From assembly GCA_934661375.1 (NCBI GenBank), contig CAKUJH010000011.1:24795-88794 (forward strand): a stretch of 64,000 nt of DNA, given 5' to 3'. The notes under the pieces were generated by a model. It did not search any database. It was given only the letters and a program-made list of their open reading frames with translations, and was not told where the DNA came from. The position numbers and the translations under genes are program-made. Origin of the DNA: an uncultured Victivallales bacterium. GTDB taxonomy: Bacteria; Verrucomicrobiota; Lentisphaeria; Victivallales; UBA1829. The stretch's first letter is position 1; each line of letters starts with the position of its first letter. Shown here piece after piece: positions 3,839 to 61,367 of the stretch.

Positions 3839-5392
3839 ATGTCTACTGTTGTTTTTATCGTCGCCGCCCTGCTGGTCGGTTTGATCCTGGGCAATCTTGT
3901 CCATTTCCTGGCGGTGCGCGCCATCGGCTCCAAAACCATGTCCGCCGCCAGCAAATTTAAAATCGACGCGGAACGCGAAGCGGAACGTCTGCTCCGTGAA
4001 GCGCGGGTTACCGCCAAGAGCGACGTCCTCAAAATCAAGGAGGACTTTGAAAATGAAATGAAGGAACGCCGCCGCGAACTTCAGGTTTCCGAACGCCGTC
4101 TGGCGCAGAAAGAAGAGAATCTGGACCGCAAAGCTGATTCTTTCGAAGCCAAAGTCCGCAACGTCGAAAAGAAAGAGCATGACATCGAGCAGATCAAGGA
4201 ACGTCTGCTTTCCAGAGAAGAGGATCTCAAAAAAGGAATTGCCCGTCAGATTGACGAACTTCAGCGCATTTCCGAACTGGACCGCGAAACTGCCACGAAC
4301 ATGCTGCTGGAAAAACTCAAAGGCGAAGTCGAAAATGAATGCGGTCTCATGATCCGCAATCAGGTCGAGGAAGCCAAGCAGAAAGTCGAACGCGAGTCCC
4401 AGCGTCTGCTCATGCTGGCGATTCAGCGTTATGCCGGCGACTGCACCTACGAACGCACCACTGCCACCATTCCGCTCCCCAGCGATGAAATGAAAGGCCG
4501 CATCATCGGACGGGAAGGACGCAACATCCGCGCTCTGGAAGCCGCCACCGGTGTCAACATCCTGATAGACGATACCCCGGAAGCCGTGGTAATTTCCTGC
4601 TTCGACCCGATCCGCAAGGAAGTCGCCCGCCGTCTGCTGGAAAAACTGATTGCCGACGGCCGCATTCATCCGACCCGTATTGAAGACCTCATCAAGAAAA
4701 TCCGCAAGGAAATCGACGAGGAAGTCTTCGATGCCGGCGAAAAGGCTGTGCTGGACTGCGGTCTGCAAGGCGTTCCCAAGCCTCTGATTACCCTGCTGGG
4801 GCGTTTGCAGTTCCGTTTCAGTTTCTCCCAGAACGTGCTGAAACATTCCATTGAGACAGCCGCGTTCATGGGAACGATTGCCGCGGAAATGGGGCTGGAC
4901 GCCCAGAAGGCGCGCCGGATCGGTCTGTTCCATGACATCGGCAAAGCGGTTGACCATGAAGTTGAAGGCACGCACGCCGCCATCGGTGCGGACATTCTCC
5001 GCAAATACAACGAAGCCAAGGATGTGGTCAATGCGGTTGCCGCGCACCATGAGGAAGTGGAAGGCACTTCACTTTATGCGTTCCTCGCCAATGCCTGTGA
5101 CGCTTTGAGCGCATCGCGTCCCGGCGCACGCAGCGAGACTACGGAACTTTATCTCAAACGTCTGGAACAGCTGGAAAGCATTGCCGGCGAATTCCCCGGT
5201 GTGGAATCCTGTTTCGCTTTGCAGGCAGGTCGCGAAATCCGGGTCGTTGTGCAGCCTGAAAAAATTTCCGAAGCCCAGGCGCAGGTCCTGAGCCGGGACA
5301 TCTGCTGCCGGATCGAAAAGGAAATGAACTATCCCGGTCAGATCAAAGTTTCGGTCATCCGCGAAACCCGTGCCGTGGAATACGCCAAGTAA
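3839..5392 (+). CDS. rny: Ribonuclease Y
   Basis: N-terminal TM helix (MSTVVFIVAALLVGLILG), a coiled-coil region, a KH domain (GRIIGREGRNIRALE), and an HD domain (GLFHDIGKAVDHEVEGTHAAIGADIL). An AAGGAG RBS sits 9 nt upstream. The first in-frame ATG at 3809 is less likely to be the start. Confidence 0.85.
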   Translation: MSTVVFIVAALLVGLILGNLVHFLAVRAIGSKTMSAASKFKIDAEREAERLLREARVTAKSDVLKIKEDFENEMKERRRELQVSERRLAQKEENLDRKADSFEAKVRNVEKKEHDIEQIKERLLSREEDLKKGIARQIDELQRISELDRETATNMLLEKLKGEVENECGLMIRNQVEEAKQKVERESQRLLMLAIQRYAGDCTYERTTATIPLPSDEMKGRIIGREGRNIRALEAATGVNILIDDTPEAVVISCFDPIRKEVARRLLEKLIADGRIHPTRIEDLIKKIRKEIDEEVFDAGEKAVLDCGLQGVPKPLITLLGRLQFRFSFSQNVLKHSIETAAFMGTIAAEMGLDAQKARRIGLFHDIGKAVDHEVEGTHAAIGADILRKYNEAKDVVNAVAAHHEEVEGTSLYAFLANACDALSASRPGARSETTELYLKRLEQLESIAGEFPGVESCFALQAGREIRVVVQPEKISEAQAQVLSRDICCRIEKEMNYPGQIKVSVIRETRAVEYAK

Positions 5393-9922: not shown

Positions 9923-10675
9923 TCAATACCAGAGATATGCACCGTTTCCTTTTACCATTGTGGGGATGAACTGCTGCGGTTTCATCAGCGATACACTTCC
10001 ATCCGCCATGGCGGTGCTTCCCGCAAAGGAATGCCGGCGGGCGGCAGTGGAGAACAGCAGCCATCTTTCATCTCCGCCTTTGACGTAGCAGAGATACCAG
10101 ATGTTTTCCACACTGTCCAGTTTGTGGATCAGCTTGTTGCTGTCCCAGTAGGATTCACGGAATTCGATGGTGCGGGAGGGTTCCTTGATGCTGGCGCGTT
10201 TTTTGTTGGATTTTGTTCCGACAGCCCATTTGGGCGTGATACCGCCGGCGAGCAGAGCATTGACCTGATAGCTCAGCAGGGTTCCGACCGGCGGACGTTT
10301 GGCGTTGGTGTCATGGAATATGTTGCTCAGGGAGGTGCTGCACGCCATGACTTTGCCGGTTACGTATTTGTTGTCGCGCAGCAGACTGAAGTAGTTGGAG
10401 TTGTCAGACCACATGCCGAGCGGGATGCGTCCCTGATAATCGTTGCTGTACATGTTGCCAGCCAGGGCGATCTGCTTTGCCTGGGAGACGCAGTTGATGC
10501 CCTGTGCTTTTTCCCGTGCAGCTTTCAGCGCAGGTAGCAGCATTCCCGCCAGAATGGCAATGATCGCAATCACCACGAGGAGTTCTATTAATGTGAACCT
10601 CAACGGTTTACGATTCAAGTATGAGGTGTGAAATATGAAATATGAAATGGATGATAATGCTTTTTGTCTGATCAT
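9923..10675 (-). CDS. Prepilin-type N-terminal cleavage/methylation domain protein (DUF1559-like pseudopilin), paralog 1
   Basis: [26 protein letters not shown] hydrophobic N-terminal helix preceded by a ~24-aa leader. The downstream region is typical of PVC DUF1559 proteins. Confidence 0.8.
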
Positions 10676-10868
10676 GATTCTGTTTCCTTTCGTTCATTTT
10701 GACGGCAATTTTGTTTGCGGCAGATTTCAAGCTGTCTCCTTTTCCTTTCGATCAAACCTCGCTTTCTTTTGCCATAGCAATTTATTGGTTGATGTTGTAA
10801 TTCTGTCGTTTTCTGTTCATTGAATATTATAATATACTTCCCTTGAAAAAAGAATAGACGGAAATGCG

Positions 10869-10989
10869 GATTATGGAATAAAAATCCAATAAAAAGTGAT
10901 ATTTTCTGAAGTGCAGTTGAAAAATGGTTTTACGGTATTATACTATGACAGAAAGCGAGGTGCGCAATGAAGGTCAAAGGGAAAGACGG
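10869..10989. repeat. 121-bp direct repeat, copy A; contains a promoter-like region and the first 8 codons of an AraC gene followed by a premature stop
   Basis: 120/121 nt identical to 12689..12809. The ATGAAGGTCAAAGGGAAAGACGG remnant runs into a stop after 12 codons. Confidence 0.85.
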
Positions 10990-11005
10990 AATCTCATACT
11001 GAAAG

Positions 11006-11998
11006 TTACAGATTCGGTATGATTTTGGGTAGATTCATGAGGTCCATGCCTGTTTTTTGAAATGCCGGATGATATGAATCAACCTGTTTTGGCAGAATTC
11101 TGTCATGATACAGGTTTTTCAGTTCGTTTTGGAAAGTCGCTTCTGATACTTCAGCAAGAGTCGGGTTGGAACAGGTTTGCCAAAGCTGTCCGAGGGAATC
11201 GTAGATGTTTGTCCATGACGCAAAAACAGGAGTATGAATATCAAAGAACTGCAGGAGTTTTTCCGGATTATTCAGATAATACTGTTTCCCTTTCGTGATG
11301 CCGTTGATTGAACGGACAAAATTACCGGCAGTCAGCTCACCCAGAACGTCCTGAATAGATTTCCAGCAGAATCCGCTGCGGTCGACAATATCCTGTATCT
11401 TGCAGGTTCCGGACGTCAGCAGAACCAGAATGGTTTCAACGCGGGCAGAAATTCCCAGAATCCCGCGCATACGGAGCAGAAGCGAAGCCGTGTTCTGCGG
11501 AAATTCCAGAGGTATTTTTCCGGAGTACCGCCGATGATTGCGCAGAAATCCGCAATGAAGTGCGAGAGGATCATTTTTCGGAATGAATTCTTCCGGCTTG
11601 TCTTCTGCATCCCGGAATAACGCAACAGGGGCAGAAATGTCTTTTGCAGTATAATCGTCTGCCGGTTTCTTCCAGCGGCCCGGGGAAGTTTCCGCTGTGA
11701 CGGCTGCCATATAACCAAGCGATGCGGAATCTTTCCATTCCGCCTTGGCATAAAGCGCTTTCAGCCGCTGGATATTGATCTGCGGAGAGTGGATTTGCAG
11801 CCAGTCCAGAATCAGATCGTAAAGCCGCTGGTCATACCGGGCAAAGCCTGCGGAGAATATGAGAAGCGCTTCCGGATCGAGGATAATTTCTGAATCCGGA
11901 ACAGTAATGTGACCTGGAATTCCAAGTGCGGTCCACTGTCTCCACAACAGATTTTGAATCGCATCAAAAAGCTGCTGTTTATATTCCTGCACTGACAT
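11006..11998 (-). CDS. Hypothetical protein (330 aa), possible wHTH near the C-terminus; partner of the NTase-like gene
   Basis: ORF with no recognisable family. Its first 20 nt overlap the upstream NTase-like ORF. GC is lower than in neighbouring genes. Confidence 0.55.
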   Translation of the reverse strand: MSVQEYKQQLFDAIQNLLWRQWTALGIPGHITVPDSEIILDPEALLIFSAGFARYDQRLYDLILDWLQIHSPQINIQRLKALYAKAEWKDSASLGYMAAVTAETSPGRWKKPADDYTAKDISAPVALFRDAEDKPEEFIPKNDPLALHCGFLRNHRRYSGKIPLEFPQNTASLLLRMRGILGISARVETILVLLTSGTCKIQDIVDRSGFCWKSIQDVLGELTAGNFVRSINGITKGKQYYLNNPEKLLQFFDIHTPVFASWTNIYDSLGQLWQTCSNPTLAEVSEATFQNELKNLYHDRILPKQVDSYHPAFQKTGMDLMNLPKIIPNL

Positions 11999-12566
11999 TT
12001 TGCCACCCCAGTTTAATGAACATGTCCTTCAGAATCTCCCGGAATTCAGGAGATATATCTTGCGTCATACACCATTTTGCCGCAGAAATGAGTTCTTCTT
12101 CTGTTGGAGAAAGCTGCTTCAAATCAGTTACGTGATATCCGCCCCGGTCTGCAGATGCAAATGTCTTGAAAAAAATCTGGTCGATACGGCTGATGTAGTA
12201 TACGGTCAGTTTTTTCCCAATAACAACGGCATGAAGTCTTTCTGCAAAACCTGCCGGCAAGCCCATTCGGAACTGGGATGCCGGTCCGTTGTTCAGCCAG
12301 TCGCCGGAAAGATTCATGATTTGGCCGACTTTTTCAGCGGCGCAGACGAGATAATCCGGAAGCGGTTCCGGATCAGCCAGGACTCCCCCCTTCATGATGG
12401 CTACAATGTCAACGTCCTGCGTAGTTCTGGGAACAAGAGACATTGCAATCAAAGCCGAGCCGCCGCAGACAACCAGTTCTGTCTGGGGTGAATCCGCCAG
12501 AATGAGCTGTTCATTCAGCAGATACAGTGCATGGTTCAGTTTTTCTATATCAATGATTTTTTTCAT
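11979..12566 (-). CDS. Minimal Pol-beta superfamily nucleotidyltransferase-like protein (AbiEii/DUF1814-like motif), 195 aa
   Basis: hG[GS]...[DE]h[DE]h pattern: VVCGGSALIAMSLVPRTTQDVDIV, followed by a C-terminal helical domain. Lower GC than flanks. Confidence 0.6.
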   Translation of the reverse strand: MKKIIDIEKLNHALYLLNEQLILADSPQTELVVCGGSALIAMSLVPRTTQDVDIVAIMKGGVLADPEPLPDYLVCAAEKVGQIMNLSGDWLNNGPASQFRMGLPAGFAERLHAVVIGKKLTVYYISRIDQIFFKTFASADRGGYHVTDLKQLSPTEEELISAAKWCMTQDISPEFREILKDMFIKLGWQNVSAGI

Positions 12567-12688
12567 GATTCATATCTTCTATGTGGGTTTTACTATAATA
12601 TAAACTGGGTTTTAATTAAATTCAATTTGAAAATGAATAAATTTCATAAAAAACAATGATTCTGGATCGTACGTTGTGACAGAAAGCA

Positions 12689-12809
12689 GATTATGGAATA
12701 AAAATCCAATAAAAAGTGATATTTTCTGAAGTGCAGTTGAAAAATGGTTTTACGGTATTATACTATGACAGAAAGCGAGGTGCACAATGAAGGTCAAAGG
12801 GAAAGACGG
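12689..12809. repeat. 121-bp direct repeat, copy B; supplies the promoter region and start codon of the intact AraC gene at 12787
   Basis: Near-identical to 10869..10989, with a single A/G difference. Confidence 0.85.
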
Positions 12810-13659
12810 TTTTTCTTTTTCCAAATATGAAATGGAGCCAAGCAAACTGTCCGTTCATACGGAAAGCTGGTTCCGGATGCACGGAAATTATCCGCTGTGG
12901 TTCGGCTGGACATTGCGTTCCATCTGTCGGAAAGGCTGGTATTTCAAACATTACAACGCGACGATCAACAGCATCGAAATACCTGTTTCCGGTACTCTGA
13001 AGGTGATGCGTCAGGACCGCGAATACATACTTCCGCCGGGACATGCGCTGATTCTGCCGGAGGGGGAGGACAATCTGCTGTCTACAGATACTTCGCTGGA
13101 TAAAATCGCTTTCGGGGTGAGCGGTTCGCTGGCAGTGCCGCTGATCCGGTCATTGTTCGGGGATTATTTCCAGATCACCGGATTGAACTGTGCAAAAATC
13201 CAGGAATATTACCGGTGGCTGGCTCCGCTGCTGCGGAAAAGTGATCCTGCGGACATTCCGAAAATCAGCGGGATCGGCATGGAACTGCTGTATTATCTGG
13301 CGTCGCACCTGGACCGGAGCATTCCCGCGGAACTGCTTCGGGCGGTGGAAATCATGAATTACAATTCCGGACGGAGAATCCGGATCAGCGACATCGCCGC
13401 GGAATGCGGTTTTTCGGATTATCAGCTGTCCCGTCTGTTCCTGAAACATTACGGGATGACCCCGAAACAGTACCTGATGCGCCAGAAAATTCAGAAATGC
13501 TGTGCCTTGCTCAAGGATTCGCAGGACCGCATCAAGGAAATCTCCGCATCCGCCGGCTATGCGGATATGCACGTTTTTTCCAAAGAATTCAAGAAACGAT
13601 GCGGCATGACGCCGCGCCAGTTCCGGAAACAGATGCGGGAAAAATCAACTCTCGGCTGA
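12787..13659 (+). CDS. AraC family transcriptional regulator
   Basis: C-terminal HTH_AraC (ISDIAAECGFSDYQLSRLFLKHYGMTPKQYLMRQKIQKCCALL...HVFSKEFKKRCGMTPRQFRK). The first 23 nt lie inside repeat copy B. Confidence 0.85.
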   Translation: MKVKGKDGFSFSKYEMEPSKLSVHTESWFRMHGNYPLWFGWTLRSICRKGWYFKHYNATINSIEIPVSGTLKVMRQDREYILPPGHALILPEGEDNLLSTDTSLDKIAFGVSGSLAVPLIRSLFGDYFQITGLNCAKIQEYYRWLAPLLRKSDPADIPKISGIGMELLYYLASHLDRSIPAELLRAVEIMNYNSGRRIRISDIAAECGFSDYQLSRLFLKHYGMTPKQYLMRQKIQKCCALLKDSQDRIKEISASAGYADMHVFSKEFKKRCGMTPRQFRKQMREKSTLG

Positions 13660-13874
13660 TTGTCCGGTTCCATTCCGGTGTTTGGTGGATGCAGAGCCCC
13701 TGTGCGTTTGTTAGATATATGAAAATAGTTAGTCGTCTCTAAAAACATTGCTTGCTTTTTCCGGATTCAGCGATATATTACCCCGACATCGGAATAAAAT
13801 GTCGGCGTGAATACATGACGCTTTTTTTTGATTCCGGTGTGTTAGGCACAGCTAATTAATGAGGAGCAAAAAAT

Positions 13875-14267
13875 ATGAATAAGACAGTGTTAGTGGTGAT
13901 TCTGCTGTTTATTGCCTGCGGAATACTGTGCGCCCGGATGATTTCCTGGACGCCGCGTCCGGATTTCATCCCCGATGAAGATGCAATCGTTGCCGTGGAA
14001 GTGATCAATGACTTTCTTGCAGCAGTGAAGAAACATGATGAAAAAACATTGAAAAAACTCTGGCATTTTGAAAATATGAAAAATGCGAAGCAGGTCATTT
14101 CCGATGTTTCCGGCGGAGACGGTGAATTTCAGCTGCAATGTGCTGTATATACCGGAAAAAAACGGGACCGGATTCTGGTAACCGGTTTGCTGCCCAACGG
14201 CAGATTTCCGGATATTGAAATGGAGAAGAACGGCGAAAGTTTCCGAATTGTCGAACTGCGTTTTTAA
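13875..14267 (+). CDS. Small secreted/lipoprotein-like hypothetical protein (130 aa)
   Basis: Signal peptide MNKTVLVVILLFIACG with a lipobox-like IAC|G. AGGAG RBS upstream. Confidence 0.5.
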   Translation: MNKTVLVVILLFIACGILCARMISWTPRPDFIPDEDAIVAVEVINDFLAAVKKHDEKTLKKLWHFENMKNAKQVISDVSGGDGEFQLQCAVYTGKKRDRILVTGLLPNGRFPDIEMEKNGESFRIVELRF

Positions 14268-14312
14268 TAAAACGGACGGTTCGGCAGAACGCTGAGCAGA
14301 AGGACATTTTTC

Positions 14313-15614
14313 ATGCGGATGCAGAATTCTTACCTTTTGGCATTGAACCGGTTCCGCCGGAAAGCGGCAGCGGCTCGGCTGCCCACAGTTCTGATGAATG
14401 CGTTCGGGGTGATGATCGCTGCTGCTGCGCTGCTGTCTGTGGCTGTCCGGTGCGGATGGTTCGGACGGAATGTTTACTGGTGTCTTCCGCTGGTTCTGGC
14501 TGCCGCAGGAGTGTTTTTTTTCTGCCGCAGCCGGCTTTCCTCGGTTCAGAGCGCCCGGCTTGCGGATCGGTTGTCCAATGCCGACCGTCGGGCGGAGAAT
14601 GCCTGGGAACTGCTGAAACGGAACGCCGAAGGTGAGTTTGCAGAATATGCCATTCAATGCGGTGTTGAAAGTCTGGATCTCGCGACCACCCGGCTGACAG
14701 GGGAAAAAATCCGCTGGCGGAATCTGGTGATTCCGGTTCTGATTCTGCTGCTGGTTCAATTGCCGGTTCCGTCCTTCCTGCATACCCGCGAAACCATATC
14801 CGGAACGGGTGCAGTTCCTTCGGACAGCAGAGCGGATTCACGCAAAGATTCGGAGCTGAATTCTCCGGAGAAACAGAACCCGACAGCAAAATCCGCAGGA
14901 TCGGAAAACAATTCCGGCAGAGGTTCCGCAGAACTTGCCGGGCGTACCGGCAAATCCGGAACTGACGGCGATCTGCAGAATGTCCGGTCCGGCAGCCGTT
15001 CCGCTATTCAGCGGGGACGGGGCGGCAGCGGCGTACCGGCAAATCCGGAATCGGAATCCGTACCGGATGAGGATACAGATTCCCGGCAGTCTGCGGAGAG
15101 CAGCGGCAGGAACACTGCCGGCGGGGCGGCTGGAAACGGTGGTCTTTCCGGAGAGGAAAACGGAACAAATCTCATAAATGTTGCCGCCGGCAGTACCGGA
15201 GACGGCAGATCCCGGAATGAACGGAAACGTCAGAAAAAAAGTGTCCGGAAAAAGATACAGGAATCGCGCGGCGGAGTTCAGCCGCTTCTGCCCGACTGCA
15301 ATCCGCCGGCGGGTCGCGAACTTTCTGAAAAAGAAGGTCATGGGGATCAGCCCGGAGACGGGCGCGGCGGAGATACCGGCGCAAAAAAATCGCGCGGCGC
15401 CGCGGCGTTTCTGCCGGTAACCCCGCAGCCGGATACGGTTGCCGGGCGTCTGGGTGTCGGAGAAGATCTCACTTCTGCCGAATCTGGACGTTCCGAAGGG
15501 GATGGGCAGCTGTCCGGAACACCTGCGGATGTACGCAGAGCCGCAGAGCCGCTGCCCCGTTTTACCGCTTTGCCGGAAACGGTCCGCAGACAAATCCGAA
15601 ACAATATGAAATAA
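14313..15614 (+). CDS. Membrane protein with long Ser/Gly/Arg/Glu-rich disordered region; first gene of the Bat/MoxR-type operon
   Basis: Two or more N-terminal TM segments, another TM near aa 140, then ~280 aa of low-complexity sequence. Tightly linked to downstream genes. Confidence 0.55.
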   Translation: MRMQNSYLLALNRFRRKAAAARLPTVLMNAFGVMIAAAALLSVAVRCGWFGRNVYWCLPLVLAAAGVFFFCRSRLSSVQSARLADRLSNADRRAENAWELLKRNAEGEFAEYAIQCGVESLDLATTRLTGEKIRWRNLVIPVLILLLVQLPVPSFLHTRETISGTGAVPSDSRADSRKDSELNSPEKQNPTAKSAGSENNSGRGSAELAGRTGKSGTDGDLQNVRSGSRSAIQRGRGGSGVPANPESESVPDEDTDSRQSAESSGRNTAGGAAGNGGLSGEENGTNLINVAAGSTGDGRSRNERKRQKKSVRKKIQESRGGVQPLLPDCNPPAGRELSEKEGHGDQPGDGRGGDTGAKKSRGAAAFLPVTPQPDTVAGRLGVGEDLTSAESGRSEGDGQLSGTPADVRRAAEPLPRFTALPETVRRQIRNNMK

Positions 15615-45395: not shown

Positions 45396-46202
45396 ATGAA
45401 CAACCAACAGTCATTGTCATCCATTTCAGATTTGAAGCGTAACCCGTTGCGGTTTACACTGATAGAACTCCTCGTCGTGATTGCGGTCATCGCTATTCTG
45501 GCAGGAATGCTGCTGCCGGCGCTGAACTCCGCACGGCTTATGGCGAAAGGTGCGGCATGTCAGAGCAATCTGAGAAGTCTTGCGCTCGCCGCAAATCTGT
45601 ACACCGATGATTACAATGAATACGTCCTCGGCACCGCCAGAGAATCCGACGGCACTCAACTGAAAATATGGGCGGAAGTACTGTTCCCGTATATGAAAAA
45701 CCGCGGAGTATTCAAATGTCCGCTGGATACCGCGCCGCGTTATCTGGACTATGCGCCGCTGTCCTACGGCCTCAATGAATATTATGAAAACGGACAATAC
45801 AATGCCAATATGAAAAATCCGGCATGGGCATGGTATTACTGGTGGATCGGCGGCAGAAAAGTCAACTTCGCCAAAAACACCGCCAGCGCTTTGTTTGTCT
45901 GCACTGTCAACACGGGAAAAATCAGCGAAGCCGATCAGGCGCTGCTCTGCCGGAAAGACCTCAACTCTGCCTCCGCCTGGTCGCAGGGCGAAATGATGCG
46001 CGCGTACCCCGGCGCACATTATCCGCCCAGTCTGGAAGACAACAAGGGACATTCCGGCGGCACCAATTTTGCTTCGCTGGACGGTTCGGGACGGCATCAT
46101 AAATACAACAAGTATGCACCGTATTTTGCCTCGCCCGCCGGATTCAAAAACAAGGAAGACTGCAAACAGATCTGGTCTCCCCAACCGGATCAGATCAACT
46201 GA
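45396..46202 (+). CDS. Prepilin-type N-terminal cleavage/methylation domain protein (DUF1559-like pseudopilin), paralog 2
   Basis: [52 protein letters not shown]. Confidence 0.85.
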
Positions 46203-60269: not shown

Positions 60270-60575
60270 GATTTCCTCCGTTTTTCTGTTTATTTCCGCA
60301 ATATAACCTGTCCTTCCGGAATGTCAACTGCGTTTTGAAGAAAAAAGCACATGATTTACAATAATGGAAAAATATTTCTTCAAACGGGTTGACAAATCCC
60401 ATTTTTTCGTTATAATTTAGTAAAACAGGATTTTATGTATGGAAAAAGCGAATGATTCACACCCGTTGAACATAAGAATCAGGAGAAAAGACAGAATATA
60501 AAAACGAAGACGCATAATTTCATATTACAAAATGATGTCATAGTCAGGAACAAAACCAGAAAGGGGAACCAGATC

Positions 60576-61367
60576 ATGAACCACCGGCAGCCGTTATCAT
60601 CCATTCCGTATTTCATGCATTATATTTCGCATTCGAAGCGTAAGTCGTTGCGGTTTACATTGATAGAACTCCTCGTGGTGATTGCTGTTATTGCAATTCT
60701 GGCGGGAATGCTGCTCCCGGCTCTGAGCGCGGCAAAAAAGAAGGCGCAGGCGATCAGCTGCATCGGTCAGCTCAAACAGCTCGGCACAGCCATGGCGCTG
60801 TACCGCGGCGACAATCAGGAATACTGGACGATCAGCCGTTTGGGTACGGACAGCAGCGGCAGTGTGCTTTACTGGGTGAATTCCTATGCGCCGTACTTCA
60901 ATTACAAAGAAACGATTTACACTTACGGTACGTGGTCTCCGAAATGGCTGCTTTGTCCTTCCATGATCGGCAGAAGCAGCGATACACTGGCGTTCGGGTG
61001 TTCCTATCCTTACAACTCCGGCTGTTTCGGCGAATCGGATTACTCCAAACTGCGGAAATCGCTGAAACAGCCCAGCAAGGTTCTGGTTCACGGCGACGGC
61101 TGGTATCACCCGAAGGTGGCGGAATACCGGAAGCTCGGTCATATTGAATTCCTCGCCGCTGAACCGAAGTATCAGGTGTGTTACCGTCACAGCCGGCGCA
61201 GCAATATTCTCTATGCCGACTCCCATATCAACCCGGAACCCCCGCAGATGCTGAATTTCAATTACTATAATTACGGCTGGTATCCGTGGTTCAACCGGAC
61301 GCAGGAACAGGAATCCGGCAGTCCGCCGATTGCGCCGTATCTGGACGGATACGCCCCTTACAACTGA
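60576..61367 (+). CDS. Prepilin-type N-terminal cleavage/methylation domain protein (DUF1559-like pseudopilin), paralog 3
   Basis: [50 protein letters not shown]. Confidence 0.85.

Follow-up and report, generated by a model that had tools for sequence, protein, structure and literature searches.

A two-gene cassette between 121-bp direct repeats at the 5' end of an AraC-family gene in human-gut Lentisphaeria

The stretch of DNA analysed here, called the window throughout, comprises 64,000 nucleotides from an uncultured Victivallales bacterium (assembly GCA_934661375.1, contig CAKUJH010000011.1, positions 24,795 to 88,794). Within it, two near-identical 121-bp direct repeats bracket a two-gene cassette that lies between a prepilin-type gene and the gene of an AraC-family regulator. 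Other contigs are designated by L numbers, and the close ones all come from human-gut metagenome assemblies; NCBI assigns the AraC protein to a Lentisphaeria bacterium metagenome-assembled genome. Contigs that carry the cassette between two repeat copies are termed filled, and those with a single repeat copy and no cassette are termed empty-site contigs. The features of the locus are given below in window coordinates, with aa for amino acids, GC3 for the GC content at third codon positions, ORF for open reading frame and UTR for untranslated region.

9923-10675, minus strand: prepilin-type gene (N_methyl/DUF1559-like) of 250 aa, the left neighbour; divergent from AraC at the empty site
10856-10868, plus strand: sequence abutting the left copy, AGACGGAAATGCG, with loose resemblance to the internal motif TGACAGAAAGCG; it comes from the 133-bp gapped extension
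10869-10989, plus strand: left repeat copy, holding the AraC promoter, 5'UTR and first 8 codons; antisense into the cassette
10917-10944, plus strand: sigma-70-like promoter of the left copy, TTGAAA-16-TATACT, matching the consensus at 10 of 12 positions
10967-11002, plus strand: relic ORF MKVKGKDGISY* (the asterisk marks the stop), made of 8 AraC codons, 3 cassette-derived codons and a stop
10990-12688, minus strand: inserted DNA of 1699 bp, GC 46.0%, GC3 0.49; missing from the empty-site contigs L042, L047/L050, L051 and L052
11006-11998, minus strand: 330-aa winged-helix protein with no Pfam family; putative antitoxin/autorepressor
11979-12566, minus strand: 195-aa DUF6036 nucleotidyltransferase (GGSAL...DVD motif) with weak MenT1/AbiEii similarity; 20-nt overlap with the downstream gene
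12584-12625, minus strand: promoter of the cassette, TTGAAT-17-TATATT, together with two AAAACCCA boxes; conserved in the cassette homologs of L022, L025 and L026
12667-12688, plus strand: 22-bp junction filler, TCGTACGTTG then TGACAGAAAGCA, unlike the upstream regions of related cassettes and outside the 121-bp repeat
12689-12809, plus strand: right repeat copy, holding the working AraC promoter (12737-12764), 5'UTR and first 8 codons
12787-13659, plus strand: AraC-family regulator gene, intact, 290 aa, beginning in the right repeat copy

The two repeat copies are identical at 120 of 121 nucleotides, and their lone difference is G at 10964 against A at 12784, as the initial annotation of this DNA had reported. 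Its reading of the right copy as the promoter and first eight codons of an intact AraC gene at 12787 likewise agrees with the alignment, as does its statement that the same eight codons in the left copy soon run into a stop. Each copy holds the promoter TTGAAA-16-TATACT (10917-10944 and 12737-12764), followed by a short leader with GAGGTG and then the eight AraC codons. When one gap is allowed, a weaker similarity reaches 12 nt further left, to 10857 and 12678, for a total of 133 bp. The 121-bp pair is the sole long near-identical repeat of the window, in which a 51-nt piece of it occurs exactly twice where shuffled sequences predict no occurrence. A repeat-internal 26-mer matched three metagenome contigs, all of them from this locus. 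The search for further copies that had been proposed at the outset has therefore been answered, in the window and the metagenome contigs, by a repeat that is not dispersed; a dispersed repeat of the REP (repetitive extragenic palindrome) or MITE (miniature inverted-repeat transposable element) kind is ruled out by the two copies in the window and the confinement of the 26-mer to the locus among metagenome contigs. No Rfam match was obtained at E <= 1 over 10400-13000, and DNA folding of the repeat region is no better than that of shuffles (z = 0.18), with no stable hairpin. These two results rule out a structured attachment (att) or attC-like site and an RNA element.

Because each repeat copy contains the AraC promoter, 5'UTR and first eight codons, the AraC gene itself is uninterrupted, with its promoter and 5' end present once on either side of the insert. 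The proposal that DNA had been inserted in the 5' end of this gene thus stands in so far as foreign DNA entered there and the gene was kept intact by duplication; the gene was not interrupted. In its structural part the initial annotation proved correct for the most part. The filled structure recurs across many samples and assemblers, in 21 independent metagenome contigs altogether, and is therefore not an assembly artefact.

The inserted DNA differs in composition from its surroundings, with a GC content of 46.0% against a window mean of 54.1% and 51.7-55.6% in the neighbour genes. The low GC noticed earlier is thus real, and the figure of about 60% then given for the surroundings was too high. 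The deviation is also visible in GC3, at 0.49 for each cassette gene and 0.64-0.68 for the genes of the pilin-like protein, AraC and GH123.

The first gene of the cassette encodes a nucleotidyltransferase that matches Pfam DUF6036 (E 2.6e-9), a family on which nothing was found in the literature. Its matches to the PADLOC AbiEii models are sub-threshold (E 0.03-0.06 over ~40 residues). An AlphaFold2 (AF2) model of this protein has a predicted local distance difference test (pLDDT) of 81, and its top Foldseek matches are weak, the structure concerned being MenT1 of M. tuberculosis (8an5_B, E 0.057, template modelling (TM) score 0.44-0.46). The model of the 330-aa partner (pLDDT 91.7) is all-helical with a central MarR-like winged helix at about residues 160-270. 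Outside the winged helix this protein has no solved-structure match, and it belongs to no family in Pfam, PHROGs or PADLOC. PHROGs gave no match for either cassette protein, and NCBIfam and PADLOC gave sub-threshold matches only. No recombinase was found in the cassette by Pfam, NCBIfam, PADLOC, PHROGs or the AF2 folds, which returned only DUF6036 and weak winged-helix/AbiEii matches; the products are a nucleotidyltransferase and a winged-helix protein, in keeping with the earlier statement that no integrase lies inside. The same four databases yielded no methyltransferase or nuclease domain in either product. The cassette is probably a toxin-antitoxin or abortive-infection module resembling MenAT/AbiE, a likeness rather than a demonstrated membership.

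The predicted cassette promoter lies on the minus strand at 12625-12597, and the two AAAACCCA boxes (TGGGTTTT on the plus strand), at 12584-12591 and 12606-12613, are 22 bp apart and flank its -10 element. The boxes are a likely operator for the winged-helix partner. They are kept in cassettes with only 61-80% protein identity. The promoter in the left repeat copy is aimed at the 3' end of the cassette and could give rise to an antisense transcript across the two genes, and transcription of the cassette would run on toward the pilin-like gene on the same strand.

Relatives of the cassette occur in settings that have nothing in common with the AraC locus. The family of the 330-aa protein comprises 194 matches, whose source names are those of Lentisphaerota only (Victivallales, Oligosphaeraceae, Victivallis). 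The pairing of the two genes is kept in all six distinct contigs examined, which represent three contexts with unrelated neighbourhoods. The first context, L022/L054, is an IMG/VR viral contig with a DUF3987 primase, Bro-N and a ParB-methylase, and its cassette proteins are 80% and 88% identical to those of the window. In the second, L025, the cassette adjoins a RelB/YafQ pair. In the third, L026-28, which belongs to another Lentisphaerota lineage, a Fic gene lies on one side of the cassette and a tyrosine integrase on the other, and the element (L026:3920-8575) includes a D5_N primase gene as well; as this context shows, the module does travel on integrase-bearing elements. No direct repeats bracket the homologous cassettes of L022, L025 or L026. 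Nucleotide homology to the related cassettes is confined to the stretch between the stop codon of the 330-aa gene and a point ~100 bp before the nucleotidyltransferase start codon, near 12666. On the evidence of the unrelated contexts, the limited span of homology and the deviant GC3, the cassette is to be regarded as a horizontally acquired minimal operon. A separate feature of L022 (the IMG/VR uncultivated virus genome, UViG, 3300001598_003161) is a 51-bp iteron-like tandem array at 4725-5287, upstream of the closest cassette homolog, whose units begin with TCGTACGCTG or TCGTACACTA.

The check for an empty site that had been suggested at the outset gave a positive result, with a single repeat copy directly upstream of AraC in four cases. 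L047, which equals L050, is a SPAdes contig of 23 kb (23.3 kb) listed for three samples, and L051 is a 7.2-kb MEGAHIT contig from another sample. L052 is a Logan contig in which left flank, repeat and AraC follow one another without a break. These contigs represent one lineage of the species found in the window and carry the AraC variant P0010, and in them the GH123 gene, the pilin-like gene, 292 bp with one repeat copy, and AraC are contiguous; the 292 bp separate the start of the pilin-like gene from the AraC ATG. The fourth, L042 (Logan SRR22974112), is likewise unbroken with a single repeat copy. Logan contigs of filled strains (L004, L006, L037, L038) break 30 nt before the first single-nucleotide polymorphism (SNP) that distinguishes the copies, as 31-mers predict, and an unbroken Logan contig therefore means a single repeat copy. 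Three short empty contigs, L008-L010, share their flanks with the filled window lineage and could reflect either a deletion between the repeats or an assembler skip; they are given no weight here, and the claim of an empty site rests on L042, L047/L050, L051 and L052. In L044 and L045, which carry a distant AraC ortholog (58% aa identity, starting MRIKGNDGYSFSEF), the pilin-like gene stands directly upstream without a cassette. A scan of genome contigs with the AraC protein returned a spurious Caldithrix match only.

From the single-copy empty sites, the cassette-free distant relative and the unrelated contexts of the cassette relatives, the 1.7-kb segment is identified as an insertion. Both junctions are identical in all 21 contigs that span them, and these common junctions point to one insertion event, now present in most sampled lineages. 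The flanks of the empty lineage are nearest to L013/L034 on the left (3/1469 SNPs) and equidistant from all filled strains on the right (15-17/3391); that lineage may have lost the cassette or may have lacked it from the start.

Two contigs have structures of their own. L042 is a mosaic over its length (1-2183), with 99-100% identity to the window from the pilin-like gene to ~13056, inside AraC, and 75-88% thereafter; its AraC protein is 92% identical overall. Either recombination with a sister lineage inside AraC or a chimeric contig would account for this. L048 (OQVO01011631.1, 1-1637) corresponds to window 10660-10989, 12810-12899 and then 11144-12242, after a first 120 nt unrelated to the window. 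Its order is left flank, one type-2 repeat copy (see below), AraC nt 1-113, and then directly the cassette interior at 11144, with few bases in common at the junction CCGCTGTG|ATACTTCAGC. It could be a chimeric contig, or else record a second junction, formed when the cassette was rearranged or amplified.

The two junctions differ in character. At the left, only 16 bp separate the last stop codon of the cassette from the repeat, and comparison with the 80%-related L022 cassette suggests a microhomology of 4-5 nt (GATTyCGTC against CCGTC in the target). At the right, the 22-bp filler consists of two parts. The first, TCGTACGTTG (12667-12676), matches the start of the L022 iteron-like units (TCGTACGCTG) at 9 of 10 positions. 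The first 11 nt of the second, TGACAGAAAGCA, are an exact copy of the repeat-internal stretch 10946-10956, and the 12th base (12688) is A in the window and G, equal to 10957, in several other strains, where the copy is 12/12, TGACAGAAAGC(A/G). The 3' GCG of this filler motif equals the GCG that precedes the left repeat at 10866-10868. The motif TGACAGAAAGC lies at 10946, 12677 and 12766, a few bases from the positions first given for it (10949, 12679 and 12769). It occupies one junction only, abutting the right copy at 12677-12687, and is missing at the left junction. Given the length of the window, about 0.03 exact copies of an 11-mer would be expected in all of it, and the position of TGACAGAAAGC at the right junction is not due to chance. 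Since just one junction has it, an att core is the less likely reading and a short templated insertion, made by microhomology-driven joining or template switching, the better one.

The repeat copies also bear traces of exchange. Left and right copies differ by 1-9 nt in 20 of the 21 filled contigs, and in L015 a 1-nt indel offsets the ungapped comparison. Five of the SNPs are clustered within 20 bp, where most left copies are of one type ('type 2') and most right copies of the other ('type 1'). The two copies are both type 1 in the window lineage and both type 2 in L001 and L031. Some right copies are mosaic, with only the last two type-2 SNPs in L030, L033 and L035 and only the first three in L032. 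Such tracts are the mark of gene conversion between the copies, by this reading complete in L001, L031 and the window lineage. Both alleles occur among empty-site strains, L042 being type 2 and L047 type 1. The single copy of the L047 lineage combines a T of the left-copy kind at repeat position 18 with the type-1 cluster after it and an A at position 96, a haplotype that is the expected product of a crossover between left and right copies. Such a crossover would precisely delete the cassette and regenerate a single-copy empty site.

The explanation held with somewhat better than even confidence is that the cassette entered once, by illegitimate and integrase-independent insertion, with a staggered target duplication of 121 bp. 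A 1.7-kb two-gene operon, acquired horizontally, would have been placed a single time between the divergent pilin-like and AraC genes of a human-gut Lentisphaeria species, its cargo being a DUF6036/MenT-like nucleotidyltransferase and a 330-aa winged-helix partner, most likely an addiction-type module with relatives on viral-like and integrative elements. Both ends would have been joined illegitimately, at the level of microhomology, to target positions 121 bp apart; possible routes are template switching, the use of two sister or fork templates, or the filling-in of a staggered break. The outcome would be the duplication of the AraC promoter, 5'UTR and first eight codons. With promoter and start codon both inside the duplicated block, AraC and the upstream region of the pilin-like gene stayed intact, and the insertion would have been tolerated for that reason; with a cargo that is probably addictive, it would have been retained in most sampled lineages. 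The two copies now serve as substrates of homologous recombination, in which gene conversion shuffles their SNPs and crossover would delete the cassette.

Several points weigh against this explanation. A simple duplication from one template does not predict the five-SNP cluster within 20 bp that separates the copies in most lineages; the cluster needs later import from strains with the other allele, or else points to an origin from two genomes. The flank SNPs do not place the empty-site lineage as ancestral or derived. The left microhomology (GACG/CGTC) comes from a cassette only 80% related, the true donor not having been found, and the 12-nt motif beside the right copy can be read as an att-like core. 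The mechanism of long target duplication is unexplained even in published cases, and 'illegitimate joining' describes more than it explains.

The SNP cluster supports a homologous event between two genomes, by which the structure arose or spread: a 1.82-kb circle of the cassette and one repeat would have entered an empty site by Campbell-type RecA recombination, or DNA of a strain with the cassette already beside the AraC promoter would have been taken up by homology-facilitated illegitimate recombination. The different alleles of the copies, each represented among the empty-site strains, would follow from it; the repeats demonstrably recombine, and the L042 mosaic would indicate cross-lineage recombination at the locus. 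Such an event explains the spread of the cassette and not its origin, since an earlier illegitimate placement is still required. The 121 bp are short for RecA, and neither a circle-junction nor a tandem-array contig was seen, with no cassette-repeat-cassette junction among 50 loci. As the source of the present structure it is judged unlikely.

Site-specific integration was the mechanism put forward in the initial annotation, with TGACAGAAAGC as a possible recombination core. In its fuller form, an element carrying a copy of the AraC 5' end would have integrated with an integrase since lost or acting in trans, leaving the addiction module between attL and attR as a remnant like a cis-mobilizable element (CIME). 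The direct repeats with a single-copy empty site fit such a history, as do the differing copy haplotypes in most lineages, which are expected if one copy arrived with the element. The motif abutting the right copy resembles the sequence abutting the left copy, and the homologous cassette of L026-28 adjoins a tyrosine integrase inside an integrative element. The junctions and the neighbourhood do not support the proposal. The motif is at one junction only, the identity block of 121 bp is long for an att core, and the 16 bp to the left and ~22 bp to the right of the cassette would need two precise internal deletions. Related cassettes, in three contexts, lack repeats as well as repeat-like or motif-bearing ends, and there is no linked recombinase in or next to the insert, whose neighbours are the pilin-like gene and AraC. 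With these objections, site-specific integration is regarded as quite improbable.

A broader and distinctly speculative extension, to which little credence is given, is that addiction modules generally use a dedicated integrase-independent route of long target duplication, as restriction-modification genes may do, that the 1.82-kb unit loops out, amplifies and re-enters the empty sites of other strains, and that the left promoter couples antisense transcription to AraC-type regulation.

An ancestral cassette, with repeats formed by local duplication and empty sites that are secondary deletions or assembly skips, is largely refuted and has very little probability left: every locus-covering contig above 25 kb is filled and the largest empty-site contigs measure 23.3 and 7.2 kb, the flanks of L008-L010 are identical to the filled window lineage and these contigs may be assembler skips, and most flank SNPs of the empty L047 lineage are common to filled strains, but the distant relative has adjacent pilin and AraC genes without the cassette, GC3 is 0.49 against 0.64-0.68 in the neighbours, the closest cassette homologs are in unrelated mobile contexts, a pure artefact is excluded by empty contigs of several kb and by unbroken Logan contigs, found in several samples, and it would be unparsimonious for 121 bp to be copied to a place that is exactly 1.7 kb away and directly adjoins a foreign operon.

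The 5' end of the pilin-like gene (10468-10690) recurs at 45423-45536 and 60561-60783 with 72-85% identity; these repeats are the prepilin N-terminal methylation region, and paralogous genes of the type II secretion/pseudopilin-like kind are typical of the phylum. In L010 (1-540) a 4-bp deletion, at window 10534-10537, would shift the reading frame of the pilin-like gene. Just downstream of AraC, a 130-aa ORF (13875-14267) has a cassette-like GC of 45% and GC3 of 0.49. The short contigs L008-L010 end at 13964-13972, and the scaffold L007 diverges, with Ns, from ~13874; the region 13600-14400 may be another variable or foreign segment.

Among known systems, the integrative elements SXT/R391, at the 5' end of prfC, and phage 21 and e14, in icd, replace the end of their target gene. 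Their recombination takes place at a short, defined core and depends on a tyrosine integrase that they encode themselves. The present locus is like them in its flanking direct repeats, in which the gene-side copy restores promoter and coding sequence and the displaced copy is a relic. Unlike them, it has no integrase and no core common to both junctions, and the unit is only 1.7 kb long. Homology-facilitated illegitimate recombination, reported from transformable bacteria, is said to need a homologous anchor on the incoming DNA. The locus is similar in that foreign DNA would have been joined at a microhomology of a few bases, with possible local duplication or deletion and no recombinase, and differs in that no donor with a homologous anchor was found. 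A DNA transposon or insertion sequence (IS) is ruled out: terminal inverted repeats are missing, the closest inverted pair being set 78 and 110 bp in from the ends, no transposase is present, and the duplication is 121 bp long where such elements have a short one of 2-14 bp. The locus also departs from an integron gene cassette, since the repeat folds at the level of shuffles, without an attC hairpin, and the cassette has its own conserved promoter.

The cargo has its closest comparison in the MenAT/AbiE nucleotidyltransferase toxin-antitoxin systems (PMC7450476, PMC10435456). The likeness consists of an overlapping two-gene operon, the G[GS]...DxD signature, weak MenT1/AbiEii matches and carriage on mobile elements, along with a winged-helix partner and conserved repeated promoter boxes that suggest autoregulation. 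In contrast with those systems, the nucleotidyltransferase belongs to DUF6036 and not DUF1814, is smaller (195 aa) and is encoded first instead of second; the 330-aa partner has no sequence family, and the toxicity of the module is putative. The locus also flags a widespread uncharacterised Lentisphaerota pair, a DUF6036 nucleotidyltransferase and a 330-aa winged-helix protein, as a candidate toxin-antitoxin or defence system.

The best fit for the locus as a whole is a clean case of the already described 'insertion with long target duplication', and not a new type of mobile element; nothing at the locus is categorically new. This class was described for restriction-modification genes (Nobusato et al., Gene 2000; Furuta, Abe & Kobayashi, NAR 2010, PMC2853133). 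It is defined by inserts of < 20 kb, target duplications of > 30 bp, the absence of mobility genes and an empty site that aligns to one repeat copy, and the published duplications around restriction-modification genes range from 46 to > 400 bp (PMC2853133). In many cases a translation start or stop falls within the repeats, so that the target gene is spared, and the repeats have been proposed to permit amplification (PMC2853133). Here the flanking repeats are 121 bp long, with a single copy between the same flanks in the four empty-site cases; the insert of 1699 bp, below 20 kb, has two genes and no transposase, integrase or other mobility gene; and the repeat is unique to the locus in the 64-kb window and the metagenome-contig scan. 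The cargo is not a restriction-modification system, which is a property of the published survey and not of the mechanism. With the published cases the locus has in common a small unit of deviant GC, a start-spanning repeat, a surviving target gene and selfish 'addiction' cargo. It is unlike them in that its cargo is a nuclease-free nucleotidyltransferase/winged-helix pair and its host belongs to the Lentisphaerota. The class is thereby extended from restriction-modification genes to a nuclease-free toxin-antitoxin-like module, and into this phylum. DNA breakage by the restriction enzyme has been proposed as the common cause of the published insertions, and a nuclease-free cargo weakens the idea that self-inflicted breaks of the cargo cause them. 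The locus goes beyond those cases in the gene conversion between its copies and the templated-looking 12-nt insertion at its junction, and its population-level resolution, with filled and empty alleles, two haplotypes, conversion tracts and that junction, could help work on the mechanism.

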